Part shown: positions 24,282 through 64,000 of the stretch, piece after piece | Layout of the letters: every line of letters starts with the position of its first letter | Position numbering within the stretch: position 1 is the first letter of the stretch | DNA from: Clostridia bacterium | GTDB lineage: Bacteria > Bacillota > Clostridia > Oscillospirales > CAG-382 | Assembly: GCA_017456765.1 (NCBI GenBank) | Contig: JAFTIR010000021.1 | Location: forward strand, 395 to 64,394 | Reading direction: 5' to 3' | Length of the DNA: 64,000 nucleotides | Made by a program: the position numbers and the translations under genes | The notes under the pieces: generated by a model | Database searches by the model: none | What the model was told of the DNA's origin: nothing | The model's input: only the letters and a program-made list of their open reading frames with translations

Positions 24282-25769
24282 ATGGATTTACAGAAGAGAA
24301 GCGAAAGCCTCGTCAAAGCAAAGAAATCCCTTGTTGACAGAGCGGCTGCAGATAAACTCCATAAGGCAGGAAAATTTACTGCATATGAGCTTATAGGTCA
24401 GCTTTTCGATGAAGGTACATTTGTTGAGACAAACGCATATGTAAAGGCTTACGCAAATGAACTCGGCACATCCGACACCGCCGAATATGAAGGCGTTGTA
24501 TGCGGCTACGGTGCTGTTGACGGAAGACTTACCTTTGTTTATGCACAGAACGCAGCAAGACTTAACGGTGCGTTTTCCAAGGCTGCAGCTGAAAAGATTG
24601 CGGCACTTTATGATATGGCAAAGAAAAACGGTGCGCCCGTAGTATCTGTATTTGATTCAAACGGTGCAAAGGTAGAAGAGGGTATTGATGTACTCTCCGG
24701 CTACGGTAAGGTAATGAAGAAGGCTTCACTTCTCCGCGGAAAGGTTCCCCAGATTTCTGTTATCGTTGGTAACTGTGCAGGAGCTGCTGCCACAATTGCG
24801 GCACTTTCTGATATTTCCGTTATGGTTGAGGGCGCGTCCTATTCCATAACCCCCGCAAGTGTTCTTTCTTCCTGCGGAGCTAAAGAAAATGTAGCTACAA
24901 GCGAATATGCTTCCGAAAAGGGCATGGTTTGCATGACTGCAAAGAATACTGCCGAAGCATTCGCTTCTGTTAAGGATGTTCTTTCTTACCTTCCTTCAAA
25001 TAAGCTTGATACTAACGTTTATACAGGCGTAGAAGATAACCCCAACCGTGCAACACCTGAGGTTGCATCCATAGTTGCAGGTGAAAAGTATGACGTTCAC
25101 AGCGTGATTGCATCTGTTGCAGACGGCGCAAGATTTTTAGAGCTTAACGCAGGAAAATCTGCGGCAATTGTTACAGGTTTTATGACTGTTAACGGCGTTG
25201 TTGCAGGTGTTGTTGCTAATAACCCTGCGGCAAAGGACGCAAAGCTCTGCAAAGGCTGTATGAATAAGGCGGCAGATTTTATAAACTTCTGCGATGCTTT
25301 CGGAATTTCCATTGTCACTCTTGTTGACACAAACGGCTTCTGCGCTGAATGTGAAGCAAAGGGTAAGGACTTCGTTTCTGCATCCGCACGTCTTGCTGAA
25401 AGCTATAGCACAGCAACAGTTCCCATGGTAACAGTAAATGTCGGCTCTGCTTACGGCTCTGCTTTCACACTCATGGGTTCAAAAGAGCTTGGTGCTGATA
25501 TGGTTATCGCACTTGACAGTGCTAAAATCGGTGTTTTAAAACCCGGTGCAGGCGTTGCTATGATGTGGACAGAAAAGATGGCCGGCGCTAAAGCTCCCAT
25601 CGAAAAGAGAAAGGCTCTTGAGGAAGAATGGGAACTTCTCATGTCAACTCCTATTCTTGCTGCAGAAGCAGGTCAGGTTGATGACATTATTCCTGCAGAA
25701 GACCTTCGAGTTAAGATTGCATCTGCCCTTGAAATGCTCTCCATGAAGAGAGAGTTTGCATCCCTTTAA
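24282..25769 (+). CDS. Acyl-CoA carboxyltransferase-like subunit (MmdA/PccB family), divergent
   Basis: LFDEGTFVE, EGVVCGYGAVDGR, DSNGAKVEEG, VPQISVI, GVVAN, AAEAGQVDDII. Confidence 0.85.
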   Translation: MDLQKRSESLVKAKKSLVDRAAADKLHKAGKFTAYELIGQLFDEGTFVETNAYVKAYANELGTSDTAEYEGVVCGYGAVDGRLTFVYAQNAARLNGAFSKAAAEKIAALYDMAKKNGAPVVSVFDSNGAKVEEGIDVLSGYGKVMKKASLLRGKVPQISVIVGNCAGAAATIAALSDISVMVEGASYSITPASVLSSCGAKENVATSEYASEKGMVCMTAKNTAEAFASVKDVLSYLPSNKLDTNVYTGVEDNPNRATPEVASIVAGEKYDVHSVIASVADGARFLELNAGKSAAIVTGFMTVNGVVAGVVANNPAAKDAKLCKGCMNKAADFINFCDAFGISIVTLVDTNGFCAECEAKGKDFVSASARLAESYSTATVPMVTVNVGSAYGSAFTLMGSKELGADMVIALDSAKIGVLKPGAGVAMMWTEKMAGAKAPIEKRKALEEEWELLMSTPILAAEAGQVDDIIPAEDLRVKIASALEMLSMKREFASL

Positions 25770-38129: not shown

Positions 38130-39230
38130 ATGAAAAAAATAAAAAATGCAGACAAAGGTATATTGTTGTTTAAAATAGGAGCCATTCTTTTTGCATATAC
38201 GACTCTTGTGCTTTTGCTCTGCATTTTTTCGCGCTCTTTTGCCGAAAGCTATTGCCGTACAGTATCTGCCTTTTTGAGATTTTTGCTCTCGACAGTTACG
38301 GGAGTTTTTCCGTTTTCGCTGGCAGAAGTCCTGCTCTTTCTTTTGCCGGTTACGTGGCTTGTATATGAGATAGCCTTAATAATAAAAAAACGTTTCAGAT
38401 TCAAAAGATTTCTCATGAGGATAGGGCTTTTTATCTTTGCGGCATATTTTTTGTTTATAAATATTTTCGGTGTCTGCTACGTAAGACGGCCGCTTGAAGA
38501 AAACATGGGTTTTGAAGTTGAAGAAATTACCGGAAGTGAGCTTGCCCGTGCGGCACTTTATATAAAAGGAGAGCTTGAAAAGACAGCAGATAAAGTTGAT
38601 TTTGCCGAGGGCGGTGCATCTACGAACCCTCATGAATGGAAAGCTATTAACGAAAAGTTAGACTACGGCTTTGAAAGACTTGAAAAGAAATATAAGTTTT
38701 TATCAGCAATAAATGCGGATGCAAAAAGAATTGTCCTTTCTCCCTATATGACCTATACCCATATATCGGGAGTGTTCATTCCCTTTACGGCGGAAGCCAA
38801 TGTAAACACGAATTATCCCGAATATGTAGTTGCCTTTTCAACGGCACACGAAAAGGCTCACCAGAGGGGAATTGCAGGGGAGGACGAGGCAAACTTTGTT
38901 GCATTTCTTGCTTGCCTTTCGTCACAGGACGATTATCTGAGGTATGTGGCATATCTTAGTATGTACGACTATTATCTTGAGGAAATATATCTGTCCGACA
39001 GTGAAATGTATTTTGATTTATTGAATGGCACCGACCGCAGAATACTCGGTGAAATGTACGCATATTCTGTTTTCTTCGATAAATATAGGGATTCTACAGC
39101 GTCAAAGGTCGCCGATACCGTAAATGATACCTATATTAAGACTATGGGCGACAGCGAAGGCACAAGAAGCTATGGCAGGGTAGTGAAGCTCTGCACGTCG
39201 TATTTGATGCATCAAAAAAATTTCAATTAG
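38130..39230 (+). CDS. DUF3810 family membrane protein, putative zinc metallopeptidase
   Basis: FPFSLAE, PFTAEANVN, HEKAHQRG...EDEANF (HExxH). Confidence 0.8.
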   Translation: MKKIKNADKGILLFKIGAILFAYTTLVLLLCIFSRSFAESYCRTVSAFLRFLLSTVTGVFPFSLAEVLLFLLPVTWLVYEIALIIKKRFRFKRFLMRIGLFIFAAYFLFINIFGVCYVRRPLEENMGFEVEEITGSELARAALYIKGELEKTADKVDFAEGGASTNPHEWKAINEKLDYGFERLEKKYKFLSAINADAKRIVLSPYMTYTHISGVFIPFTAEANVNTNYPEYVVAFSTAHEKAHQRGIAGEDEANFVAFLACLSSQDDYLRYVAYLSMYDYYLEEIYLSDSEMYFDLLNGTDRRILGEMYAYSVFFDKYRDSTASKVADTVNDTYIKTMGDSEGTRSYGRVVKLCTSYLMHQKNFN

Positions 39231-39445
39231 GTTTCCGCGGCTTTCGAGCCGCGTTTTCCGTTACTTTTGACTCAGCAAAAGTAACCAAAACTGCCCACTC
39301 TGCAAAAAATTACCGCTTCGCTCATATTTTTTGCGAGCCGTGGAGGCTCATACTCAACGGCATATTTGTAAAAGCTCTAATATTCATCCCACTAATAGGG
39401 ATGGTTCGCCTCGCCTTGCGAGGCCATAGCCTGCCAAAGGCAGGC
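39231..39445 (+). repeat. Structured repeat copy 1 (four-hairpin core plus 3' module)
   Basis: CGCGGCT-TTCG-AGCCGCG; GTTACTTTTG..CAAAAGTAAC-CAAAA; CCAC at 39295; GCAAAAAAT..ATTTTTTGC; GAGCC-GTGGA-GGCTC; then ATATTTGTAAAAG..CACTAATA and two GC hairpins shared with 42640-42724. Confidence 0.75.
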
Positions 39446-39494
39446 TTTCTCAGACATATTAGTGAATCTTTTATATGATTTTCCGCTGTTATTG

Positions 39495-39624
39495 CTTAGA
39501 GGGTAAAAAGGGGCACCACGCCCCGTGTCGGAATATCAAAAATTCCGACACATGAGTGGAGCGTTTTTGGTTTCTTTTGGGGCGAGCCAAAAGAAACTCG
39601 TCACCGCAGTGACGAAATTCTTCC
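39495..39624 (-). repeat. Structured repeat copy 2
   Basis: Reverse complement aligns with 42504-42637; plus strand aligns with 42806-42912 (CGACACATGAGYGGAGCGTTTTTGGTTTCTTTTGGGGCGWGCCAAAAGAAACTCG). Confidence 0.9.
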
Positions 39625-39709
39625 AAAGCAAAGGATTCCGCGCGGCTCAAGGTACGGAATTTATAAAAAAGACCATGGCAACATTAAATCACCACAGTCT
39701 TTTAATTAT

Positions 39710-40546
39710 CTATTCCTTCTGCGCAAGACAAACCCTTTCAACCTCAAACATATCACGAAGCAGACTTGCCGAAAACTTCTGCGAGCGGAAAATCGCCGCA
39801 ACTTCTTCGCCGATGTCGTAACCCACCTCAACAGCACAATAACCCTTGTCCGAAATAAATTTGTTTGCAAAATACTTTGCAATGAGCTTGTAAAAATCGA
39901 GTCCGTCGTGTCCGCCGTCAAGGGCGATTGCAGGTTCAAAAAGAACCTCGGGACTAAGAGAACTCATGTCGTCTGACTTTATATAGGGTGGATTTGAAAC
40001 GATTACGTCAGGCAGAAAGTTTGGGGTGTACTCGTATATGTCGGCACATATAAACTTTAATCTCTCGGGAGAAATGCCGTGATATTCGGCGTTTCTTTTT
40101 GCGTATTCAAGAGCATCTTTTGAAATGTCCACAGCCACCGCCGTAACATCGGGTCTGTTGTTTAAGACAGCCACCGAAATACATCCGCTTCCTGTGCATA
40201 GGTCAAGTAATTTTCCGTTGCGGGGCAGTTTCTTTATCGCAATTTCCGCCAGCATTTCGGTTTCGGGTCGGGGGATAAGACAGCCCTTGCCGCAGAACAT
40301 ACGAAGCCCGAAAAACTCCCATTCCCCGATGATGTACTGAAGCGGCTCAAACTCAAGACGCCTTTTTACGGCACTTGTGAGCTTTTCGAGAATTTCTCTG
40401 TCAAGAACGTTGCACCTTGTTAGAAGAAGCTCGCTCTTTTTCATTCCCGAAACGGCCTGCATCATTGTTTCAAGCTCAAATGAGGCGTTGTCACTTATAA
40501 GTTGTAATTTTGGTAGATATTCTGCTTTAAATTCGTTGTATGTCAT
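39710..40546 (-). CDS. prmC: Release factor glutamine methyltransferase
   Basis: EPLQYIIG, LIPRPETE, LDLCTGSGCI, SNPPYI, ALDGGHDGL. Confidence 0.95.
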   Translation of the reverse strand: MTYNEFKAEYLPKLQLISDNASFELETMMQAVSGMKKSELLLTRCNVLDREILEKLTSAVKRRLEFEPLQYIIGEWEFFGLRMFCGKGCLIPRPETEMLAEIAIKKLPRNGKLLDLCTGSGCISVAVLNNRPDVTAVAVDISKDALEYAKRNAEYHGISPERLKFICADIYEYTPNFLPDVIVSNPPYIKSDDMSSLSPEVLFEPAIALDGGHDGLDFYKLIAKYFANKFISDKGYCAVEVGYDIGEEVAAIFRSQKFSASLLRDMFEVERVCLAQKE

Positions 40547-40566
40547 AAATAATTTCCGAGTAATTC

Positions 40567-41541
40567 TTACTCGGCTGTGTTTTCTTTGTCTGTGTCTTCT
40601 TTTGATTCTTGCGGGTAAATGTCGGGAAGTGCCGCTTTCAATGAGGTAATAGCAACCTCAATCTGACTTTCATCCGGCTCCTTTGTAGTAAGTCTCTGAA
40701 TCCAGAGACCGGGTGCAGAAACAATCTTTACAAACAGATTGTTGTGAGTGCCGGCAAACTTTATAAATTCAAATCCCACGCCCACAACAATGGGGAGAAA
40801 GAGTAGCTTTAAAGGCACTCTTGCAATAACGGGAAGATGAATGATAAGAGCTGATGTGATAATGCCGAGGAACATCATAACAAAAAGAAAACTTGTTCCG
40901 CATCTCGGATGAAATCTTGACTGCTTCTTAACGTTTTCAACCGTCAGTTCAAGTCCTGCCTCGTGGCAGAAAATGCTCTTGTGTTCAGCACCGTGGTACT
41001 GGAAAACTCTCTTCATGTCGGGAATGAGCGCACAAAGATAAATGTAGAGAACGAATATAAGTATCTTGACTATTCCCTCGGTAACACTGAGAACAAGTCT
41101 GCTGTCGGTAAAATTCTTAACAAACTCCGCAATCTGCGCGGGAAGATAGATGAAAAGAAGCACCGCAAGACCGAGACCGAGAATTGTACCAACCGCCGAA
41201 GCGATTGCCGTTACACTCTTGCCGAATTTTTCGTTAAGCCACTTTTCAAACTTTGTTTCCTCCTCCTCAATGCCGAGCATGTCTGCCGAACGGTTGAGAG
41301 TCTTAAAGGAAAGAATCATTGTTTCAACAAAATTGACTATGCCGCGTATAACAGGAAGATTTAAGATTTTGTGCTTTGTTCTTATAGACTCGAAAGGATT
41401 TACCTCTGTTGTAATATTCCCGTCAAGGCCTCTGACAGACAGTGCCACAAGGTCCTTCGACTTCATCATGACACCCTCAAGCACAGCCTGACCGCCGACA
41501 GTTCCGAGACGGCAGGAAAGGTTTTCGTTTTTATTGCTCAT
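40567..41541 (-). CDS. DUF1385 family membrane protein
   Basis: GGQAVLEGVMM, FQYHGAEHK, HPRCGTSF, LTTKEPD; upstream of prmC as usual. Confidence 0.92.
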   Translation of the reverse strand: MSNKNENLSCRLGTVGGQAVLEGVMMKSKDLVALSVRGLDGNITTEVNPFESIRTKHKILNLPVIRGIVNFVETMILSFKTLNRSADMLGIEEEETKFEKWLNEKFGKSVTAIASAVGTILGLGLAVLLFIYLPAQIAEFVKNFTDSRLVLSVTEGIVKILIFVLYIYLCALIPDMKRVFQYHGAEHKSIFCHEAGLELTVENVKKQSRFHPRCGTSFLFVMMFLGIITSALIIHLPVIARVPLKLLFLPIVVGVGFEFIKFAGTHNNLFVKIVSAPGLWIQRLTTKEPDESQIEVAITSLKAALPDIYPQESKEDTDKENTAE

Positions 41542-41801
41542 AATATAATCACCTTAAGATTTTAATACAAATATTATACAGAATAATAATCAATTGTATG
41601 GGGACAAACTGTTGAATTAAAGTAAACATCTAAGTAATAATTATTGAATATTTTTCGCAATTTATATTATCAAACGTTTAATGAACCGGGTGTTGTAAGA
41701 TAATACAAAAAAATTCGTCAATTTGAATAATGTTTTTGTATACCCCTTGAAATAAGAATAGAAATGTAATATAATAAAAGAAAAGGGCAGGTGGACATTT
41801 A

Positions 41802-42449
41802 ATGTCGAACTTCACAACTTTTAAGTATGAAACCAAAAGAAACAACCTCTTTCTGCGTGTTTGCAAGGGTCACTTTGCAACCAATGACAGACACAGCAAC
41901 TACTATATAGATGTTGTGGCGCAGAAGGCAAGACTTTCCGAAGCAAAGGCTGTCGCACAGGAACTTAGCTCCTACTATTATCAGTCAACTATTGTTGATA
42001 CAATTCTTTGCCTTGACGGCACAGAGGTTATAGGTGCGTGCCTTGCAAATGAACTTACAAAAGCAAATTTTGTGAGCATGAATGCCCATAAGTCGATTTA
42101 CGTTGTTTCTCCTGAAATAACAAATTCAAGCCAGATTTTGTTCCGTGACAACATTGTGCCCATGATTGAGGGCAAGAGTGTGATGCTTCTTGCGGTTTCC
42201 TATTCCTCGGGCAGAAGCGTTGAGGCAGCCATTGATGCTGTAAAGTATTACGGCGGCTCTGTTGTGGGTGTTTCTGCAATATTCTCGACTGCTGAAAAAT
42301 CAAAGGCAGGTCATCCGATTTATTCCTGCTTCAACCCCGATTTCCTCGGTGATTATCAGCACTTCAATCCTCAGGAATGTCCCATGTGTAAGGCAGGGCA
42401 GAAGCTCGATGCGCTGATCAATGGTTTTGGTTATTCGCTTCTTAAATGA
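41802..42449 (+). CDS. Orotate phosphoribosyltransferase-like protein with degenerate PRPP motif
   Basis: GHFAT..RHSNYY, C-terminal CPMC; the PRPP-loop position reads LLAVSYSSGRS with no acidic pair. Confidence 0.7.
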   Translation: MSNFTTFKYETKRNNLFLRVCKGHFATNDRHSNYYIDVVAQKARLSEAKAVAQELSSYYYQSTIVDTILCLDGTEVIGACLANELTKANFVSMNAHKSIYVVSPEITNSSQILFRDNIVPMIEGKSVMLLAVSYSSGRSVEAAIDAVKYYGGSVVGVSAIFSTAEKSKAGHPIYSCFNPDFLGDYQHFNPQECPMCKAGQKLDALINGFGYSLLK

Positions 42450-42462
42450 TTACAGGTATTTG

Positions 42463-42503
42463 CCCCCGACCGAAAGGTCGGGGGATTGTTTTGCATTTTT
42501 TTT
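42463..42503 (+). terminator. Intrinsic terminator after PRT-like gene
   Basis: CCCCCGACC-GAAA-GGTCGGGGG followed by a T-rich tract. Confidence 0.75.
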
Positions 42504-42724
42504 GGGAGAGAGTTTCGGCACTGCGGTGCCGACCATATTTTGGCCCGCCCCAAAATATGGAAAAAACGCTCCACTTATGTGTCGTGACTTTTAGAGGTCA
42601 CGACACGGGGCGTGGTGCCCCCTTTTAACCCTCTAAGGAATATTTGTAAAAGTTTAAGTTTTCTTTACACTAATAAATGTGGTTTGCCTCGCAAGGCGAG
42701 GCTATAGCCTGCTGTATGGCAGGC
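42504..42724 (+). repeat. Structured repeat copy 3 (core plus 3' module)
   Basis: TCGGCAC-TGCG-GTGCCGA; CCATATTTTGG..CCAAAATATGG-AAAAAA; CCAC at 42571; GTGTCGTGAC..GTCACGACAC; GGGGC-GTGGT-GCCCC; then the module shared with 39362-39445. Confidence 0.88.
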
Positions 42725-42790
42725 AAATGCAGGTGGAGTGGTGAGAGAAAGATATAAGTTTTATTTACTCCTGCGTAGAGAATAAAAAAA

Positions 42791-42918
42791 GAGCCGCCGC
42801 GGCTCGTGTCGAATGTTATGGAGCGAAGCGGAGTTTTCGACACATGAGCGGAGCGTTTTTGGTTTCTTTTGGGGCGTGCCAAAAGAAACTCGCTTCCGCA
42901 GAAGCGAAATTCTCCCCC
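42791..42918 (-). repeat. Structured repeat copy 4
   Basis: Minus strand: TCGCTTC-TGCG-GAAGCGA; GTTTCTTTTGG..CCAAAAGAAAC-CAAAAA; CCGC; GTGTCGAA..TTCGACAC; GAGCC-GCGGC-GGCTC. Confidence 0.9.
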
Positions 42919-42978
42919 AAAGTCGACCGAAAACGTGGTCCGCCGTATGCGGAACCCATAACTTTTTTTATATTCATA

Positions 42979-43007
42979 TTGAAAATCATTTTCCTTTGTG
43001 ATACAAT
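42979..43007 (+). promoter_or_regulatory. Sigma-A promoter of glycoside hydrolase gene
   Basis: TTGAAA-N17-TACAAT with extended TG. Confidence 0.6.
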
Positions 43008-43048
43008 AACTTAAAAGGCGAATACTTTGTTTTTGAGGTGTATTATAA

Positions 43049-45595
43049 ATGAAGAGACTGAATGAATGTCTTACAGACAATTACGGTAGTTATATATTGC
43101 CATTTTTCTGGCAGCACGGCGATTCCCATGCGCTTCTTCGTGAAGAAATTGACGCTATGCAAAGAAGTGGTGCTAAAGAATTCTGCGTTGAGAGCAGAAT
43201 TCACCAGGATTTCTGCAAGGATAAGTGGTGGGAGGACTTCGGCTTTATCTTAGAAGAGGCGAAAAGACGGGACATGGGTGTGTGGCTTCTTGATGATAAG
43301 CAGTTTCCCTCGGGCTTTGCTAATGGTGCCGTTAGCGCAACACCTGAGCTTCAGAAGAAGCATATAGAGCTTTTGTTCAAAGATGTAGTCGGCCCCAAAA
43401 AGGATGCGGCAGTGGTATTGCCAAAGATAGATGAAGCAAACGAGAAAATTATAAATGTCGTTGCTTTCAAGAGAGTGGACGATAGCACAAATGAGCTTTG
43501 CGAGGGCGAGCCAATTCCCCTCATGCAGAACGTTTCCGACGGACTTTTGTTTTTTGATATTCCCGAGGGAGTATACAGAATTTTCTATGTAATTGAAACA
43601 CGCCTTCAAAAAATGGGTGCAAGAATGCACCTTTGTGATATGCTTAATATTGACTCCTGCAGACTTATGCTCTCACAGGTCTATGAGCCGCATTATGAAC
43701 ATTTCAAGGAATACTTCGGCAATACCTTTAAGGGCTTTTTCTCGGATGAACCCTGCTTCGGTAACGAGGCTTCAACCGGCTATTCGCCTTTAGGAAAAGA
43801 GAATGTTGTTCTTCCTTACAGCGATGAGCTTGTTTGTATGCTTTCTGAAAAATGTAAAAAGTCACGCGAGGAAATTCTCTGTCTTTTGCCCTTTTTGTGG
43901 TGTAATCATTCGGATAAAAATCCCGAAATCAGATACTATTACATGGACTGCGTTTCCGAGCTTTATAAGAGAAACTTTTCGCTTCTTCTCGGTAACTGGT
44001 GCCGTGAGCATGGAGTAATGTATATCGGTCATATCATCGAGGATGTAAACTACCATATGCGCCTCGGTGTCGGTGTCGGTCATTACTTCAGAGCAATGGC
44101 AGGTCAGGATATGTCTGGTGTTGATATTGTTCTCAATCAGATGATACCGGGCTTTAATGACCATATACACGCGGCAAACGTCGGTGTAAAGAGGGCAGAC
44201 CCCGAGTTTTACAGATATACACTTGCAAAGCTCGGCTCATCCGACTCCCACCTTGACCAAAAGAAAAAGGGCAGAGCACTGTGCGAAATTTTTGGTGCTT
44301 TCGGCTGGGCGGAGGGTGTGCCAATGATGAAGACCCTTGCAGATAATATGCTTGTGTCGGGTATAAATCATTTTGTTCCCCATGCCTTTACAAACAGATA
44401 CCCCTGTCCCGACTGTCCGCCTCACTTCTACTGCGGCGGAAAAAATCCCCAGTTTGATGCTTTCTCAGACCTTACAAAATATATGCAGAGAATGTGCCAC
44501 CTGCTTTACGGCGGACAGCATGTCAATAATGTTGCGGTGCTCTATAACTGCGATGCCGACTGGATTGCGGGAGAGCATGACCTTTTCCAGAAGGTTGCAA
44601 AAATCCTTGTGCAGAATCAGATTGACTTTGACTTTGTACCCCTGGATTCTTTAGAAAATCTCAATTTCAAAGACGGCGGCTTTGTTATTGGCGACGAGTG
44701 CTTCAAGACTATTGTCGTTTCACGCTCGGCTGTTCTTCCCAAAAAGCTCATTGAAAAATTGAATGTTCTTTCGGAAAACGGTGTTGAGGTAATATTCTGC
44801 GAACATCTTCCCGAACGTTTTGCCGACAGCGATGAAAAGATGAATTGCGATGGCTTTACCACCTCAAAATATGATGAGCTTCCCAAGGCTCTTGACAAGT
44901 ACAGGGACATCACTCTTTCCAAGGAATGTAAATACCTGCGCTACTATCACGTAAAGAACGAGGGTAAGGATGTTTATATGTTCAGCAATGAGGACATATA
45001 CAATGAAATCTGCGTTGATATTACCCTTTCCCACGGCGGAGAGTACATAAAGTACGACGCATGGAATAATAAAACCCTCTGCGGCAAGGCAGACGGCAAT
45101 AAAATTTCCCTTAAACTTCTCCCATCTCAGGCTTCTGTGCTTGTGTTTGAAGAACACGGACAGCAAATCACGGACTTTTACCGCGACTATGAAACTTCAC
45201 CCCTTTGTGCCGAATGGAAAATCAGCATAAGCAAGGACGGGGATGAGTTTTCCGAATTTGACACGACAAGTACACTTTATAACCTTGCAAGAAAAATCCC
45301 CTCATTCTGCGGAAAGGTAAGATACGAAGCTAAGGTGAATTTTGATAAGGTTCCCGAAAAGATTTCGCTTGGCAGTGTCGGTGAAATTGCAAGCCTTTAT
45401 GTCAACGGCGAAAAGTGCGAGGATGCTCTGTTTGTTCCTTATATCTTTGATGTTAAGGATAAGTGTAGGGCAGGGGAAAATGAAATTGTTGTTGAGGTTG
45501 TAACAAACCTTGCTTACCGCGAAAGAGACAGCGCTTCAACCTATCATTCACTAATGCCCATGGGCATGACAGGACCCGTTGAACTTAAATTTTAA
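43049..45595 (+). CDS. Glycoside hydrolase, GH106 (rhamnosidase)-like
   Basis: PFFWQHG, WLLDDKQFPSG, GFFSDEP, EIFGAFGW, GINHFVPHAF; C-terminal beta-sandwich (GENEIVVEVVT). Confidence 0.7.
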   Translation: MKRLNECLTDNYGSYILPFFWQHGDSHALLREEIDAMQRSGAKEFCVESRIHQDFCKDKWWEDFGFILEEAKRRDMGVWLLDDKQFPSGFANGAVSATPELQKKHIELLFKDVVGPKKDAAVVLPKIDEANEKIINVVAFKRVDDSTNELCEGEPIPLMQNVSDGLLFFDIPEGVYRIFYVIETRLQKMGARMHLCDMLNIDSCRLMLSQVYEPHYEHFKEYFGNTFKGFFSDEPCFGNEASTGYSPLGKENVVLPYSDELVCMLSEKCKKSREEILCLLPFLWCNHSDKNPEIRYYYMDCVSELYKRNFSLLLGNWCREHGVMYIGHIIEDVNYHMRLGVGVGHYFRAMAGQDMSGVDIVLNQMIPGFNDHIHAANVGVKRADPEFYRYTLAKLGSSDSHLDQKKKGRALCEIFGAFGWAEGVPMMKTLADNMLVSGINHFVPHAFTNRYPCPDCPPHFYCGGKNPQFDAFSDLTKYMQRMCHLLYGGQHVNNVAVLYNCDADWIAGEHDLFQKVAKILVQNQIDFDFVPLDSLENLNFKDGGFVIGDECFKTIVVSRSAVLPKKLIEKLNVLSENGVEVIFCEHLPERFADSDEKMNCDGFTTSKYDELPKALDKYRDITLSKECKYLRYYHVKNEGKDVYMFSNEDIYNEICVDITLSHGGEYIKYDAWNNKTLCGKADGNKISLKLLPSQASVLVFEEHGQQITDFYRDYETSPLCAEWKISISKDGDEFSEFDTTSTLYNLARKIPSFCGKVRYEAKVNFDKVPEKISLGSVGEIASLYVNGEKCEDALFVPYIFDVKDKCRAGENEIVVEVVTNLAYRERDSASTYHSLMPMGMTGPVELKF

Positions 45596-62688: not shown

Positions 62689-63521
62689 TTACATTAGAAG
62701 AAATTTTAAAGGATGCCGAAGAAAAAAAGTACGGCGTAGGACTTTTCAATATGCTTAATCTTGAAATGGCAAGAGGTATTATTGATGCGGCTGAGCAGGA
62801 AAAATCACCTGTAATTTTAGGTGTTGCTGAAGTACATCTTCCTTTTGTTCCCTTCGATTATGCAGAAATTATCATGAACAAGATTGCAAAGGATGCAAAG
62901 GTTCCCGTGTGTCTCCACTTTGACCACGGTACAGACTACAAGAAGATTCTCGGTGCTATCAAGGCAGGCTTTACATCCGTTATGTACGACGGTTCTGCAC
63001 TTCCTTACGAAGAAAACATTGCTAACACAAGAGAAATCTCAAAGGTTGCTCATGCAATGGGATGCTCTGTTGAAGCAGAACTCGGTCATGTCGGCGGTGC
63101 TGAAGGCGGCGGAGATGACGGACACGAAGCTATGTACACAAATGTTGACCAGGTTAACGACTTTATAAGAAGAGCTGACATTGATGCTCTTGCGGTTGCT
63201 ATCGGTACTGCTCACGGTAAGTACGCAAAGAAGCCCAAGCTCGACATTCAGAGACTTGCTGACATTTACAAGATTGCTGAAAAGCCCCTCGTTCTTCACG
63301 GTGGTAGCGGTCTTTCGGACGACGACTTTAAGAATACAATCAAAAATGGTATCAGAAAGGTTAACATCTGTACCGAAATGTGTATTGCAGGTCTTAAGGC
63401 ATTCAATGCGGCATTTGAAAGAGACACAGGCTTTGAGCTTGCTACAATGGTTGCAAAGGCAACTGTTCAGGAAGTCGTTAAGGGCAAGATGAGACTCTTT
63501 GGTTCTTCCGGCAAAGCTTAG
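62682..63521 (+). CDS. Class II fructose/tagatose-bisphosphate aldolase
   Basis: LHFDHG, FTSVMYDGS, VEAELGHVG, AIGTAHG, PLVLHGGSG, KVNICT. Confidence 0.93.
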   Translation: MLVTLEEILKDAEEKKYGVGLFNMLNLEMARGIIDAAEQEKSPVILGVAEVHLPFVPFDYAEIIMNKIAKDAKVPVCLHFDHGTDYKKILGAIKAGFTSVMYDGSALPYEENIANTREISKVAHAMGCSVEAELGHVGGAEGGGDDGHEAMYTNVDQVNDFIRRADIDALAVAIGTAHGKYAKKPKLDIQRLADIYKIAEKPLVLHGGSGLSDDDFKNTIKNGIRKVNICTEMCIAGLKAFNAAFERDTGFELATMVAKATVQEVVKGKMRLFGSSGKA

Positions 63522-63900
63522 TCGGGAAAGCCCGACAGCAAATTTCGCGGGAAGTATTTGACGAAATTTAGTTGTTCGGTGTCGCGTAATAAACCTCGTT
63601 TGACCGCCATAAATCAAAGCGGTCAAACTCTGCTGAAAACACGCACTATAAAAATGTGAGTGGTAAGCCACCGCGGCGAAGGAGAGAAGTCAGCGGAGGT
63701 TTGAGAGTAGTACATAAAAGTTAGAAACACATGCAAATTTTGACCACAGTTGTGTGGCAGTTTGTAAAGTTTGTGCGTGTCAAAATTTGACAAGTACTGA
63801 AAAGTAGCCTTCAAACCGAGCCATCTCTCCTGTTGAGCGGAGAATTTTTGGTACTTTTGTTTCGGGACAAAAGTACAGGGGCGGGAAAGCTCTGAGATTC
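63521..63900 (-). repeat. Structured repeat copy 5 (expanded) in a highly structured intergenic region
   Basis: Minus strand GTACTTTTGT..ACAAAAGTAC-CAAAAA-TTCT-CCGC-TC, then an about 150-nt interrupted stem (63681-63830), GCC-GCGGT-GGC, then three further hairpins. Confidence 0.7.
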
Positions 63901-63961
63901 AATCCATATATCTCAAAGAAACTAATAATTAAAAATACTAAATCGAAAAGGAGAATTTACC

Positions 63962-64000
63962 ATGGATTTTTTATCAACAGTAAAAGGCAGCCTTCTTGAA
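63962..64000 (+). CDS. Start of next operon gene, possibly glucosamine-6-phosphate isomerase/deaminase-like
   Basis: RBS AAGGAG then MDFLSTVKGSLLE; only 13 codons visible, so the product call rests on recalled N-terminal similarity and context. Confidence 0.4.
   Translation, partial: MDFLSTVKGSLLE

Follow-up and report, generated by a model that had tools for sequence, protein, structure and literature searches.

A high-copy interspersed repeat in a Clostridia genome, built from inverted units that share a covarying double-pseudoknot fold

Five copies of a structured element recur in a 64,000-nucleotide stretch of DNA from a Clostridia bacterium (the window analysed here; contig JAFTIR010000021.1), and they raise the question of whether they are a handful of noncoding RNA genes or parts of a larger repeat. 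The five structured copies listed in a preliminary description are real; however, rather than a few ncRNA genes, they belong to a repeat of >100 copies arranged in inverted pairs around a centre. The order proposed there for all five (hp1, hp2, A-run, CCRC, hp3, and hp4) holds in the four short copies, whereas the fifth has no hp1 and has its hp3 replaced. That description also lacked the arrangement of the four short copies, which are both arms of two ∼400-bp composites with a common centre. We consider the five copies to be probably lineage-restricted, high-copy, and nonautonomous interspersed repeats of the MITE/BOX/BIME kind, with arms that fold when single-stranded, and this arm fold most likely acts as RNA at the 3′ ends of genes. 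Bacteria commonly carry small interspersed repeats, most of them simple hairpins; the fold of this one is as elaborate as that of a riboswitch or a small ribozyme.

From the outside inward, the short unit (∼130 nt) comprises hp1, hp2, an A-run linker, hp3, and hp4, and two units, inverted and facing inward around a structured centre of ∼125 bp, make up the ∼400-bp composite. The first composite, E1 (39231-39624), consists of unit c1, a centre, and unit c2. Its L-type arm, c1 (39231..39349, plus strand), is supported by its sequence, an nhmmer match, and a fold z-score of −5.8, and contains hp1 at 39236-39253 (found by our terminator scan), hp2 at 39260-39285, the linker at 39286-39300 with CCAC at 39295-39298, hp3 at 39302-39334, and hp4 at 39335-39349 with a GTGG loop (39340-39343). 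The E1 centre (39350..39494, plus strand) comprises a hairpin with a TAATA-type loop, followed by GCCTCGC-N3-GCGAGGC and then by GCCTGCC-N3-GGCAGGC. The R-type arm, c2 (39495..39624, minus strand; covariance model 155 bits, z = −6.5), has hp1 at 39597-39616, hp2 at 39570-39597, hp3 at 39525-39551, and hp4 at 39510-39524, the last followed by a T-run on the minus strand; both hp1 and hp4 of c2 are terminator-like in the scan.

The second composite, E2 (42504-42918), is formed by unit c3, a centre, and unit c4. In its left arm, c3 (42504..42637, plus strand; covariance model 156 bits, z = −6.2), hp1 lies at 42515-42532, hp2 at 42533-42560, CCAC at 42571-42574, hp3 at 42579-42606, and hp4, followed by a T-run, at 42607-42621. 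The E2 centre (42638..42772, plus strand) has the same orientation as the E1 centre, with which it forms a direct repeat (D2; 76% over 82 nt). The right arm, c4 (42773..42918, minus strand), found by the covariance model (141 bits) and the terminator scan, has hp1 at 42889-42908, hp2 at 42862-42889, and hp4 at 42791-42805, with a T-run past hp4 on the minus strand. The fifth copy (about 63655-63876, minus strand; ∼220 nt, without hp1) is a long-form unit; such units measure ∼220-260 nt and have a long purine-pyrimidine helix in the position of hp3. In this copy, hp2 is at 63851-63876, helix P3 pairs a purine arm (63825-63832) with a pyrimidine partner (63680-63687) and encloses about 130 nt, and the hp4 equivalent, at about 63667-63679, has a GCGG loop.

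The pairing on which the preliminary description was built stood up to a reading of the sequence. The hp1 stems of c1-c4 are CGCGGCT/AGCCGCG, CGTCAC/GTGACG, CGGCAC/GTGCCG, and CGCTTC/GAAGCG, with TGCG as the loop in three copies and TTCG in one; hp2 and hp4 likewise have the stems described, and the linker and the hp4 loop read CCAC/GTGG in copies 1-3 and CCGC/GCGG in copies 4 and 5. Fold z-scores ranged from −3.5 to −6.5, and none of 200 shuffles equalled the units. A covariance-model search, suggested earlier as a check, returned 99 matches in the whole 1.8-Mb genome, and the pairing held on the 64 units found at E < 1e-12 when 427 kb of it were searched. In the alignment of these 64 units, 96.0% of 2201 cells were paired, against 76.2% after shuffling (0 of 500 shuffles reached 96.0%); sliding the partners by 1-3 columns lowered pairing to 41-47%. 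Both sides had changed in 29 of the 37 pairs, and compensatory changes were found in every helix, in line with the selected fold that had been proposed. The hp1 loop was TGCG in 42 of the 64 units, and some of the single-stranded linker bases were invariant.

Both pseudoknots that had been put forward, between the linker and the hp4 loop and between the hp2 loop and the linker, covary. Among the 64 aligned units, the linker/hp4 pair was CCAC/GTGG in 34 and CCGC/GCGG in 19, and both states occurred inside the same hp2/hp4 classes. In the long forms, this pairing was complementary in 32 of 34 and took six states (39 distinct rows were read by eye, of which 34 from the genome and its kin were kept and 5 dropped as spurious). 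The hp2-loop/linker triplet was complementary in 54 of 108 units under strict criteria (17.7 on average and at most 28 in permutations) and in 79 of 108 under relaxed ones (45.5 on average and at most 60); by our own tally, it is missing in about 25 of the 108, which have an hp2 loop of the CNCGCC type. The stems are 98% Watson-Crick (1746 of 1784 cells), and a wobble-pair test for the RNA strand gave no strand signal, with 14 G-U against 8 A-C among the 1784 cells. Stems of this composition are equally compatible with palindromes acting at the DNA level. With ∼100 natural variants in one genome and relatives in a second family, the repeat is a ready covariation data set for structure.

No RNA family in Rfam matched the fold. 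At gathering score, Rfam 15 matched two tRNAs only in the whole window. The best match in 39150-39750, with E values up to 10, scored 17.8 bits against a cutoff of 58; nothing matched on contig C26 or the E2 stretch at E values up to 0.5, and a single match, at chance level, came from six loci of relatives. For the repeat, no Rfam 15 family, HEARO, the IS605-orfB motifs, and known ribozymes included, came near its gathering score. The likeness to Flavo-1 suggested earlier did not survive: Flavo-1 was absent from the matches (on 39150-39750 with E values up to 10, elsewhere up to 0.5-1), and because the Rfam search gave no match, the unit is not Flavo-1, the only likeness suggested being a hairpin followed by an A-rich stretch.

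We then consider the repeat as a family. An nhmmer search gave 121 matches on 16 of the 42 contigs of the 1.8-Mb genome, comprising 47 inward-facing pairs and 27 singles. Among 14 genomes of the genus, covariance-model matches numbered 99, 55, 33, 30, 20, 20, 16, 4, 2, 1, 0, 0, 0, and 0, and among 139 other genomes of the order, matches were confined to one further genus (three of its six genomes). This second genus belongs to another family, and its units again form inverted pairs; hp2 and the A-run are the best-kept part between the genera. Repeat density tracks contig composition in the assembly, and a mixed bin is therefore possible.

E1 is absent from the matching site in five of five relatives, where one bidirectional terminator hairpin stands in its place; a mobile element would thus have replaced a native terminator. 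E2 is absent from the matching site, with plain terminators in its place, in three of the four relatives read (G005, G008, and L068), and G010 carries other sequence there. Both elements have thus been inserted relative to kin, which at about 70-78% nucleotide identity are fairly distant and give low boundary resolution; since a gene-carrying copy was not found, it is on such kin that mobility rests. At the 20 anchorable composites among 26 examined, we found neither a target-site duplication nor a fixed terminal sequence, and conservation lies in the subterminal structure, the outermost 10-40 nt being variable.

The elements are intergenic, mostly directly past stop codons or native terminators, and 66 placed blocks occupy 47 tandem, 14 convergent, and 5 divergent spacers (611, 186, and 194 genome-wide). 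In the window, hp1 and hp4 fit the terminator pattern of a GC-rich hairpin followed by a T-run; a T-rich tract lies past hp1 in 63 of 64 units, and at least four T occur in the 6 nt past hp4 in 49 of 60. Hp1 with its U-rich tract and hp4 with its T-run would give the units the look of intrinsic terminators in this genus. Because some elements sit between his genes of an apparent single operon, they would not be strong terminators, and because related elements of the other genus have no T-runs past their hairpins, the family probably has a core role other than termination. We propose that transcription of flanking genes runs into the element, where the arm fold may work as RNA; the compact double pseudoknot could shield the RNA 3′ end, which would leave the host unharmed by the insertion or slightly better off.

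A bolder form of this idea, which we hold to be rather unlikely, is that the unit represents a complex-folded RNA of a new class, carried by mobile elements in inverted pairs. Its double pseudoknot would be capped, in the long form, by a pyrimidine strand parallel to the purine-pyrimidine helix, forming a triple helix, and the RNA would itself be active as a self-cleaving ribozyme, an exonuclease-proof 3′ cap, or the partner of a recombinase encoded elsewhere. A pyrimidine tail that mirrors the helix arm is seen in the long forms and in the other genus, and in six left-hand units, its match to the pyrimidine arm of the helix is 9 nt in parallel and 5 nt in antiparallel orientation. The parallel match would fit a triple helix and counts for a rival reading, in which the units are free-standing functional RNA genes (for example, a guide RNA, an RNA that recruits proteins, or a new self-cleaving ribozyme), with the RNA driving or being needed for spread and the inverted layout being secondary. 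Four helices, two covarying pseudoknots, and invariant linker bases, which make the unit more complex than ordinary MITEs, speak for such genes, as do the lack of an Rfam match and the retention of hp2 and the A-run across two bacterial families. However, no conserved promoter was found upstream of the units, the flanks of which diverge beyond ∼10 nt, and the centre cannot drive the units because they point inward; further, no cleavage-site signature was recognized, and the stems show no wobble bias. We consider free-standing RNA genes improbable.

An enzyme might instead act on the DNA. The TnpA of IS608 picks its cleavage site through short base-pairing of a hairpin flank with a distant tetranucleotide, and by analogy, the folds here could be signals that an HUH or tyrosine-type enzyme reads in single-stranded DNA, as in REP/REPIN-RAYT systems or small IS200/IS605 derivatives, with hairpin-linker pairings guiding cleavage during replication. 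The Watson-Crick stems would suit such signals, as would the failure to find target duplications, which is also the case for IS200/IS605, and Y1 transposase genes occur in 7 of the 14 genomes of the genus. However, Y1_Tnp (PF01797) is absent from G000 (99 matches), from G005 (33 matches, 98% complete), and from all three repeat-bearing genomes of the second genus, whereas G003 has the gene but no repeat match; moreover, the six Y1 loci fetched have no unit within about 1.5 kb, and the TnpB zinc-ribbon family (PF07282) is missing from all 14 genomes of the genus. T-runs on one strand and UNCG-type loops have no obvious use in DNA. REP/REPIN-RAYT systems share with the units inverted doublets of structured palindromes with a spacer, high copy number, vertical retention, and a position at gene 3′ ends (PMC3337134, PMC3116915), and the doublet design of REPINs (PMC3337134) counts for the single-stranded DNA reading. 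Yet a unit of ∼130 nt with four helices is far larger than a REP of 20-40 nt, no conserved GTAG or CGTC tag precedes a hairpin, and hp1 has no fixed tag before it. We consider a role as single-stranded DNA signals doubtful. Membership in the REPIN/RAYT group was rejected, as the distribution of Y1 genes among kin does not follow that of the repeats and the six Y1 loci are free of units, and a small IS200/IS605 derivative with a TnpB guide RNA was rejected on the absence of PF07282 and on ends that are symmetric inverted copies.

The repeat has spread without an adjacent enzyme gene, as proposed at the outset; none was seen beside the units in a check for enzyme neighbours, and none of the 47 pairs enclosed a gene. 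In the assembly (89% complete), we found no Y1, TnpB, IS110-type, reverse-transcriptase, DDE_Tnp_1, IS256, or ISL3 gene; the lone transposase-like gene was an rve gene on contig C40. An ordinary MITE of the cut-and-paste type, in which the terminal inverted repeats are unusually long and imperfect, the hairpins incidental, and the covariation a product of a few founder subfamilies, might be read from this rve gene together with the ∼400-bp size, inverted ends, lack of coding capacity, intergenic position, restricted lineage, and variable copy number, but it is very improbable, given that the arms of one element often differ in their stems while each keeps its own pairing, that six pseudoknot states exist and both main states fall within the same hp2/hp4 classes, that the ends are unconserved and without target duplication, and that nhmmer found no unit on C40. 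For the nonautonomous repeat that we favour, hp2 and the A-run may be what a trans-acting protein recognizes in copying the element, and in an orphan repeat with 0 to 99 copies per genome of the genus, genes that co-vary with copy number could reveal how such repeats move.

Its design resembles that of BOX repeats (boxA/B/C of streptococci; boxE and boxF of Streptococcus suis), which are likewise intergenic composites of interchangeable 50-130-nt modules in Firmicutes, with an extensive predicted fold if transcribed; they lack a clear target duplication, and no transposase is known for them (PMC3049150). BOX repeats are thought there to act on cotranscribed genes (PMC3049150). The likeness is one of design and not of sequence: the present elements are intergenic, foldable composites of interchangeable modules without a transposase, but they consist of inverted copies of one fold around a centre and contain two covarying pseudoknots, not one long stem. 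The pneumococcal SPRITE, a Rho-independent-terminator-like element, shares a hairpin with a U-rich tract and is enriched near gene 3′ ends (PMC3049150). However, SPRITE is a single 18-bp duplex, whereas the terminator-like hairpins here are parts of a larger fold; units also lie inside the his cluster, and relatives in the other genus have no T-runs. Bacterial MITEs (Correia, ERIC, RUP, and bcr1, among others) are similarly small, noncoding, inverted-ended, intergenic, lineage-restricted, and RNA-foldable (PMC3184786, PMC2229807, PMC10969869), but for our units, no target duplication, conserved termini, or parent insertion sequence was found.

The modules of the repeat are variously combined: besides L-type, R-type, and long-form units, they include partial units, arrays of 8-mers, and centres of two kinds. 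We aligned 26 composites picked from the 47, for 19 of which a BLAST search with the E2 centre gave the orientation, and the closest full elements were only 87-95% identical, which gives no sign of recent movement. In Logan contigs, the depth of repeat bins was 10-50× that of their flanks, an example of how repeats fragment the short-read assemblies of gut Clostridia that have not been cultured. A degenerate L-type fragment (hp1 and the start of hp2; 42919..42957, minus strand) abuts c4 and illustrates how the family is put together as a nested mosaic; by eye, without a scripted count of the flanks, the same fragment/c4-type junction recurs at no fewer than six other copies.

Reading the sequence at 39000-43300 and 63300-64000 bore out every stem and loop of the preliminary description, and it placed the four copies at 39231-42918 as the arms of two composite elements, so that they are not independent loci. 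Each arm (the unit, ordered hp1, hp2, A-run linker, hp3, and hp4) faces a partner on the opposite strand. Unit c1 (39231-39349, +) faces c2 (39495-39624, -) across a 145-bp center, together forming element E1, and c3 (42504-42637, +) faces c4 (42773-42918, -) across a 135-bp center, forming element E2. The two centers resemble each other and share one orientation (direct repeat D2, 76% over 82 nt). Both elements are ∼400 bp long and occupy most of an intergenic spacer, E1 having a DUF3810 gene and prmC as neighbors, and E2 a 215-aa gene and a glycoside hydrolase gene. The 215-aa gene (41802-42449, +) encodes a protein without a Pfam match at E up to 1e-5, which is conserved at 51-93% identity in 41 metagenome loci. 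The fifth copy (about 63655-63876, -) retains hp2, the linker, and a GCGG loop, lacks hp1, and carries in place of hp3 a purine-pyrimidine helix that encloses about 130 nt.

The stems are strongly conserved as pairings. In an alignment of 64 units, which was fitted to a covariance model and is thus biased towards the structure, standard pairs made up 96.0% of 2201 cells versus 76.2% in shuffles (reached by 0 of 500), pairing dropped to 41-47% when partners were slid by 1-3 columns, and both-sided changes were present in 29 of the 37 pairs. The raw unit rows nonetheless show discrete compensated stem variants directly. The proposed pseudoknot between the linker and the hp4 loop also held, as CCAC/GTGG in 34 and CCGC/GCGG in 19 of the 64 aligned units, the remaining 11 being gapped or mismatched; both states are found within the same hp2 and hp4 classes. 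Long forms of the unit (∼220-260 nt), represented by 34 of 39 distinct rows from this genome and its relatives after five had been judged spurious by eye, are complementary here in 32 of 34 cases, with one mismatch in each of the other two, and display six states (CCAC/GTGG, CCGC/GCGG, CCUGC/GCAGG, CCCC/GGGG, CCCU/AGGG, and CCCAC/GUGGG). A second pairing, between the hp2 loop and the linker, had been noticed in copies 1 and 5 only, and it extends to 54 of 108 units under a strict test (permuted mean 17.7, maximum 28 in 2000 permutations) and to 79 of 108 under a relaxed one (permuted mean 45.5, maximum 60), employing six different triplet pairs. Since the hp2 loop and linker are adjacent and co-inherited, their association itself is not weighty, and it is the complementarity across many classes that counts. 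About 25 units with a CNCGCC-type hp2 loop, by a hand tally, do not fit this pairing. A closing helix of the short form, between the 5' purine flank and a 3' CCCTCT tail, showed no covariation when read by eye and was rejected.

The five-member RNA family first envisaged proved instead to be a high-copy repeat. The window belongs to a 1.80-Mb genome in 42 contigs (G000; 89% complete, contamination given as 2.55%), in which an nhmmer profile of c1-c4 found 121 matches on 16 contigs, resolving into 47 inward-facing pairs (mostly 400-420 bp) and 27 singles, several of which have a long-form partner that the profile overlooks. A covariance model built from c2-c4 gave 64 matches at E < 1e-12 in 427 kb of the genome and 99 in the whole of it. 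Further, some contigs terminate within units, and public sequencing runs containing the window stretch, among which no RNA run was listed, have a contig depth 10-50 times as great over units as over flanks. In Logan contigs from four DNA runs no clean empty-site joint emerged, because these contigs break inside the repeats. Repeat density per contig tracks both the first axis of tetranucleotide composition and GC: contig C26 (45.8% GC) holds 24 units and C10 (40.8% GC) none, and the largest contig, C32 (253 kb), has zero profile matches and a single long form. This unevenness could be a real regional bias or the mark of a mixed bin.

Within the genus, BLAST of E2 matched 9 of 13 other genomes, versus 0 of 27 belonging to other genera in the same family and order, and the covariance model gave 99 (G000), 55, 33, 30, 20, 20, 16, 4, 2, and 1 matches per genome, followed by zero in four. 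Among 141 sampled genomes of the order, matches outside the genus were confined to one genus of another family (three of six genomes), where the units share hp1, the CUUUUUG...CAAAAAG top of hp2, the CAAAAAC linker, and the purine-pyrimidine hairpin, and are likewise arranged as inward-facing pairs, with outer ends about 520 bp apart. A first sequence-pattern search of genome contigs returned zero loci; a second pattern found 21 in genome bins labeled uncultured Clostridia, Eubacteriales, 'Feifaniaceae', and Oscillospiraceae, one of them labeled as from deer colon. E2 had no BLAST match in phage and plasmid collections, and a degenerate core pattern found none in viral contigs. The 41 loci recovered in a metagenome scan with the 215-aa protein contain no units; the closest, at 93% protein identity, is just 71% identical in nucleotides across 2.7 kb, and the set thus includes no strain of the same species.

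Locating the matching regions in same-genus genomes showed what occupies the two sites elsewhere. The DUF3810-prmC spacer without E1 is 48-124 bp in four relatives (G005, G008, G009, and G010), and in these and a metagenome contig, L068 (5/5), it holds a single GC-rich bidirectional terminator hairpin that stands between an A-run and a T-run. In G000 (window 39210-39710), compared with stretches L055-L058 and L068, this hairpin is missing and E1 stands in its place, with the DUF3810 stop codon directly at the E1 boundary. In G005 and G008 the E2 site spans 110-145 bp and contains a terminator as well as the next promoter; in L068 it has a terminator hairpin without a unit, and in G010 other sequence. 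G000 keeps the native terminator, with E2 lying immediately past its T-run. T-runs lie on both flanks of E2 and may or may not represent a target duplication; no consistent duplication was seen at 20 anchored composites of the 26 examined. The 66 placed blocks lie in 47 tandem, 14 convergent, and 5 divergent spacers (genome-wide, 611, 186, and 194), and in tandem spacers the element is usually closer to the upstream stop codon. Elements on contig C26 (stretch L044:1-11500) lie between hisF and hisH, hisC and hisD, and hisD and hisG, and after hisZ, only 6-50 nt from the neighboring genes; strong termination by the elements is excluded if these genes are still cotranscribed. A rhamnosidase-like gene is also found within this his cluster.

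The proposal that the repeat spread without an adjacent enzyme gene was upheld, and no pair of units encloses any gene. Searches of the 89%-complete G000 found no Y1_Tnp, TnpB zinc ribbon, DEDD_Tnp_IS110, RVT_1, DDE_Tnp_1, Transposase_mut, or DDE_Tnp_ISL3, and its one rve gene lies on a 2.7-kb contig without an nhmmer unit. Y1 genes occur in 7 of the 14 genomes of the genus with a distribution that does not track the repeats, being absent in G000 and G005 and present in the repeat-free G003; no units lie within about 1.5 kb of the six Y1 loci read, and Y1 is found in none of the three repeat-bearing genomes of the second genus. None of the 14 genomes of the genus has TnpB, and one of them has an IS110-type match above cut-off.

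The family is a small structured interspersed repeat, a known kind, and is unusual in its multi-helix, double-pseudoknot arm, conserved across two bacterial families. The suggested resemblance to the Flavo-1 motif was not sustained, since no Rfam family matched the repeat at gathering or loose thresholds, and titles and the opening parts of abstracts disclosed no published description of such an element. An integron attC site (the ends of hp2 would mismatch the attC core) and a CRISPR repeat (there are no arrays) were set aside as unlikely. REPINs are likewise inverted doublets; the family fails the tests that define REPIN/RAYT systems, as it does those for classical MITEs. The closest parallels are streptococcal (PMC3049150): the modular design of BOX-type repeats and the terminator-like design of SPRITE.

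Whether the fold acts as RNA or as DNA is more evenly balanced. Of 64 units, 42 have TGCG as the hp1 loop, and a C-G pair closes this loop in 53 of 57; at least four T residues fall within 6 nt after hp4 in 49 of 60 units; a T-rich tract lies downstream of hp1 in 63 of 64; and a terminator pattern scan caught both hp1 and hp4. These strand-dependent features favor an RNA read from outside to inside. However, the unit stems are 98% Watson-Crick, and among 1784 cells the nonstandard ones (14 G-U, 8 A-C, and 16 of other kinds) show no strand bias; this near-absence of the wobble pairs expected in an old RNA family counts against RNA. On balance, we lean slightly towards action at the RNA level.

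Several smaller features accompany the units. In left arms of the second genus (L125:1151-1215, L131:1138-1205, L120, L121, L126, and L135), a pyrimidine tail after the hairpin mirrors the pyrimidine arm, as it does in G000 long forms on C26 and C3; against the purine arm, the tail has a 9-nt parallel versus a 5-nt antiparallel match, clear in the second-genus arms. As a lead rather than a finding, such an arrangement would permit RNA to form an intramolecular triple helix, or DNA to adopt the H-DNA form. Four long forms (C26:9150-9195, 24680-24725, and 25660-25705; window 63790-63835, -) contain a 14-codon frame of equal length and differing codons, which starts inside the purine arm and stops inside a GTCAAATTTTGAC palindrome. 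It is not kept in relatives and was dropped as a peptide, being more likely a reflection of structure in the RNA or DNA.

Tandem 8-mer arrays (GGAATTAG/GGAATTGG, 3-6 copies) adjoin the outer end of many units, for example at L041:11195-11239 (= G000 C12:75590-75633), C8:73250-73290, C3:132390-132440, and C26:24815-24860. The 8-mer is similar to the purine-rich terminus of the unit itself, and the arrays may have arisen by slippage where the element ends, or they may form an additional module. Other modules co-occur with units in the genus, for example a GC-rich TTGTCAGCGGCGACTCGCCGC-type palindrome and a GTTAAGCGACACCGAG-type block after long forms (L003 and L012 in G010; C26:900-1000 and C3:6250-6330 in G000); several repeat families are interleaved in this genus.
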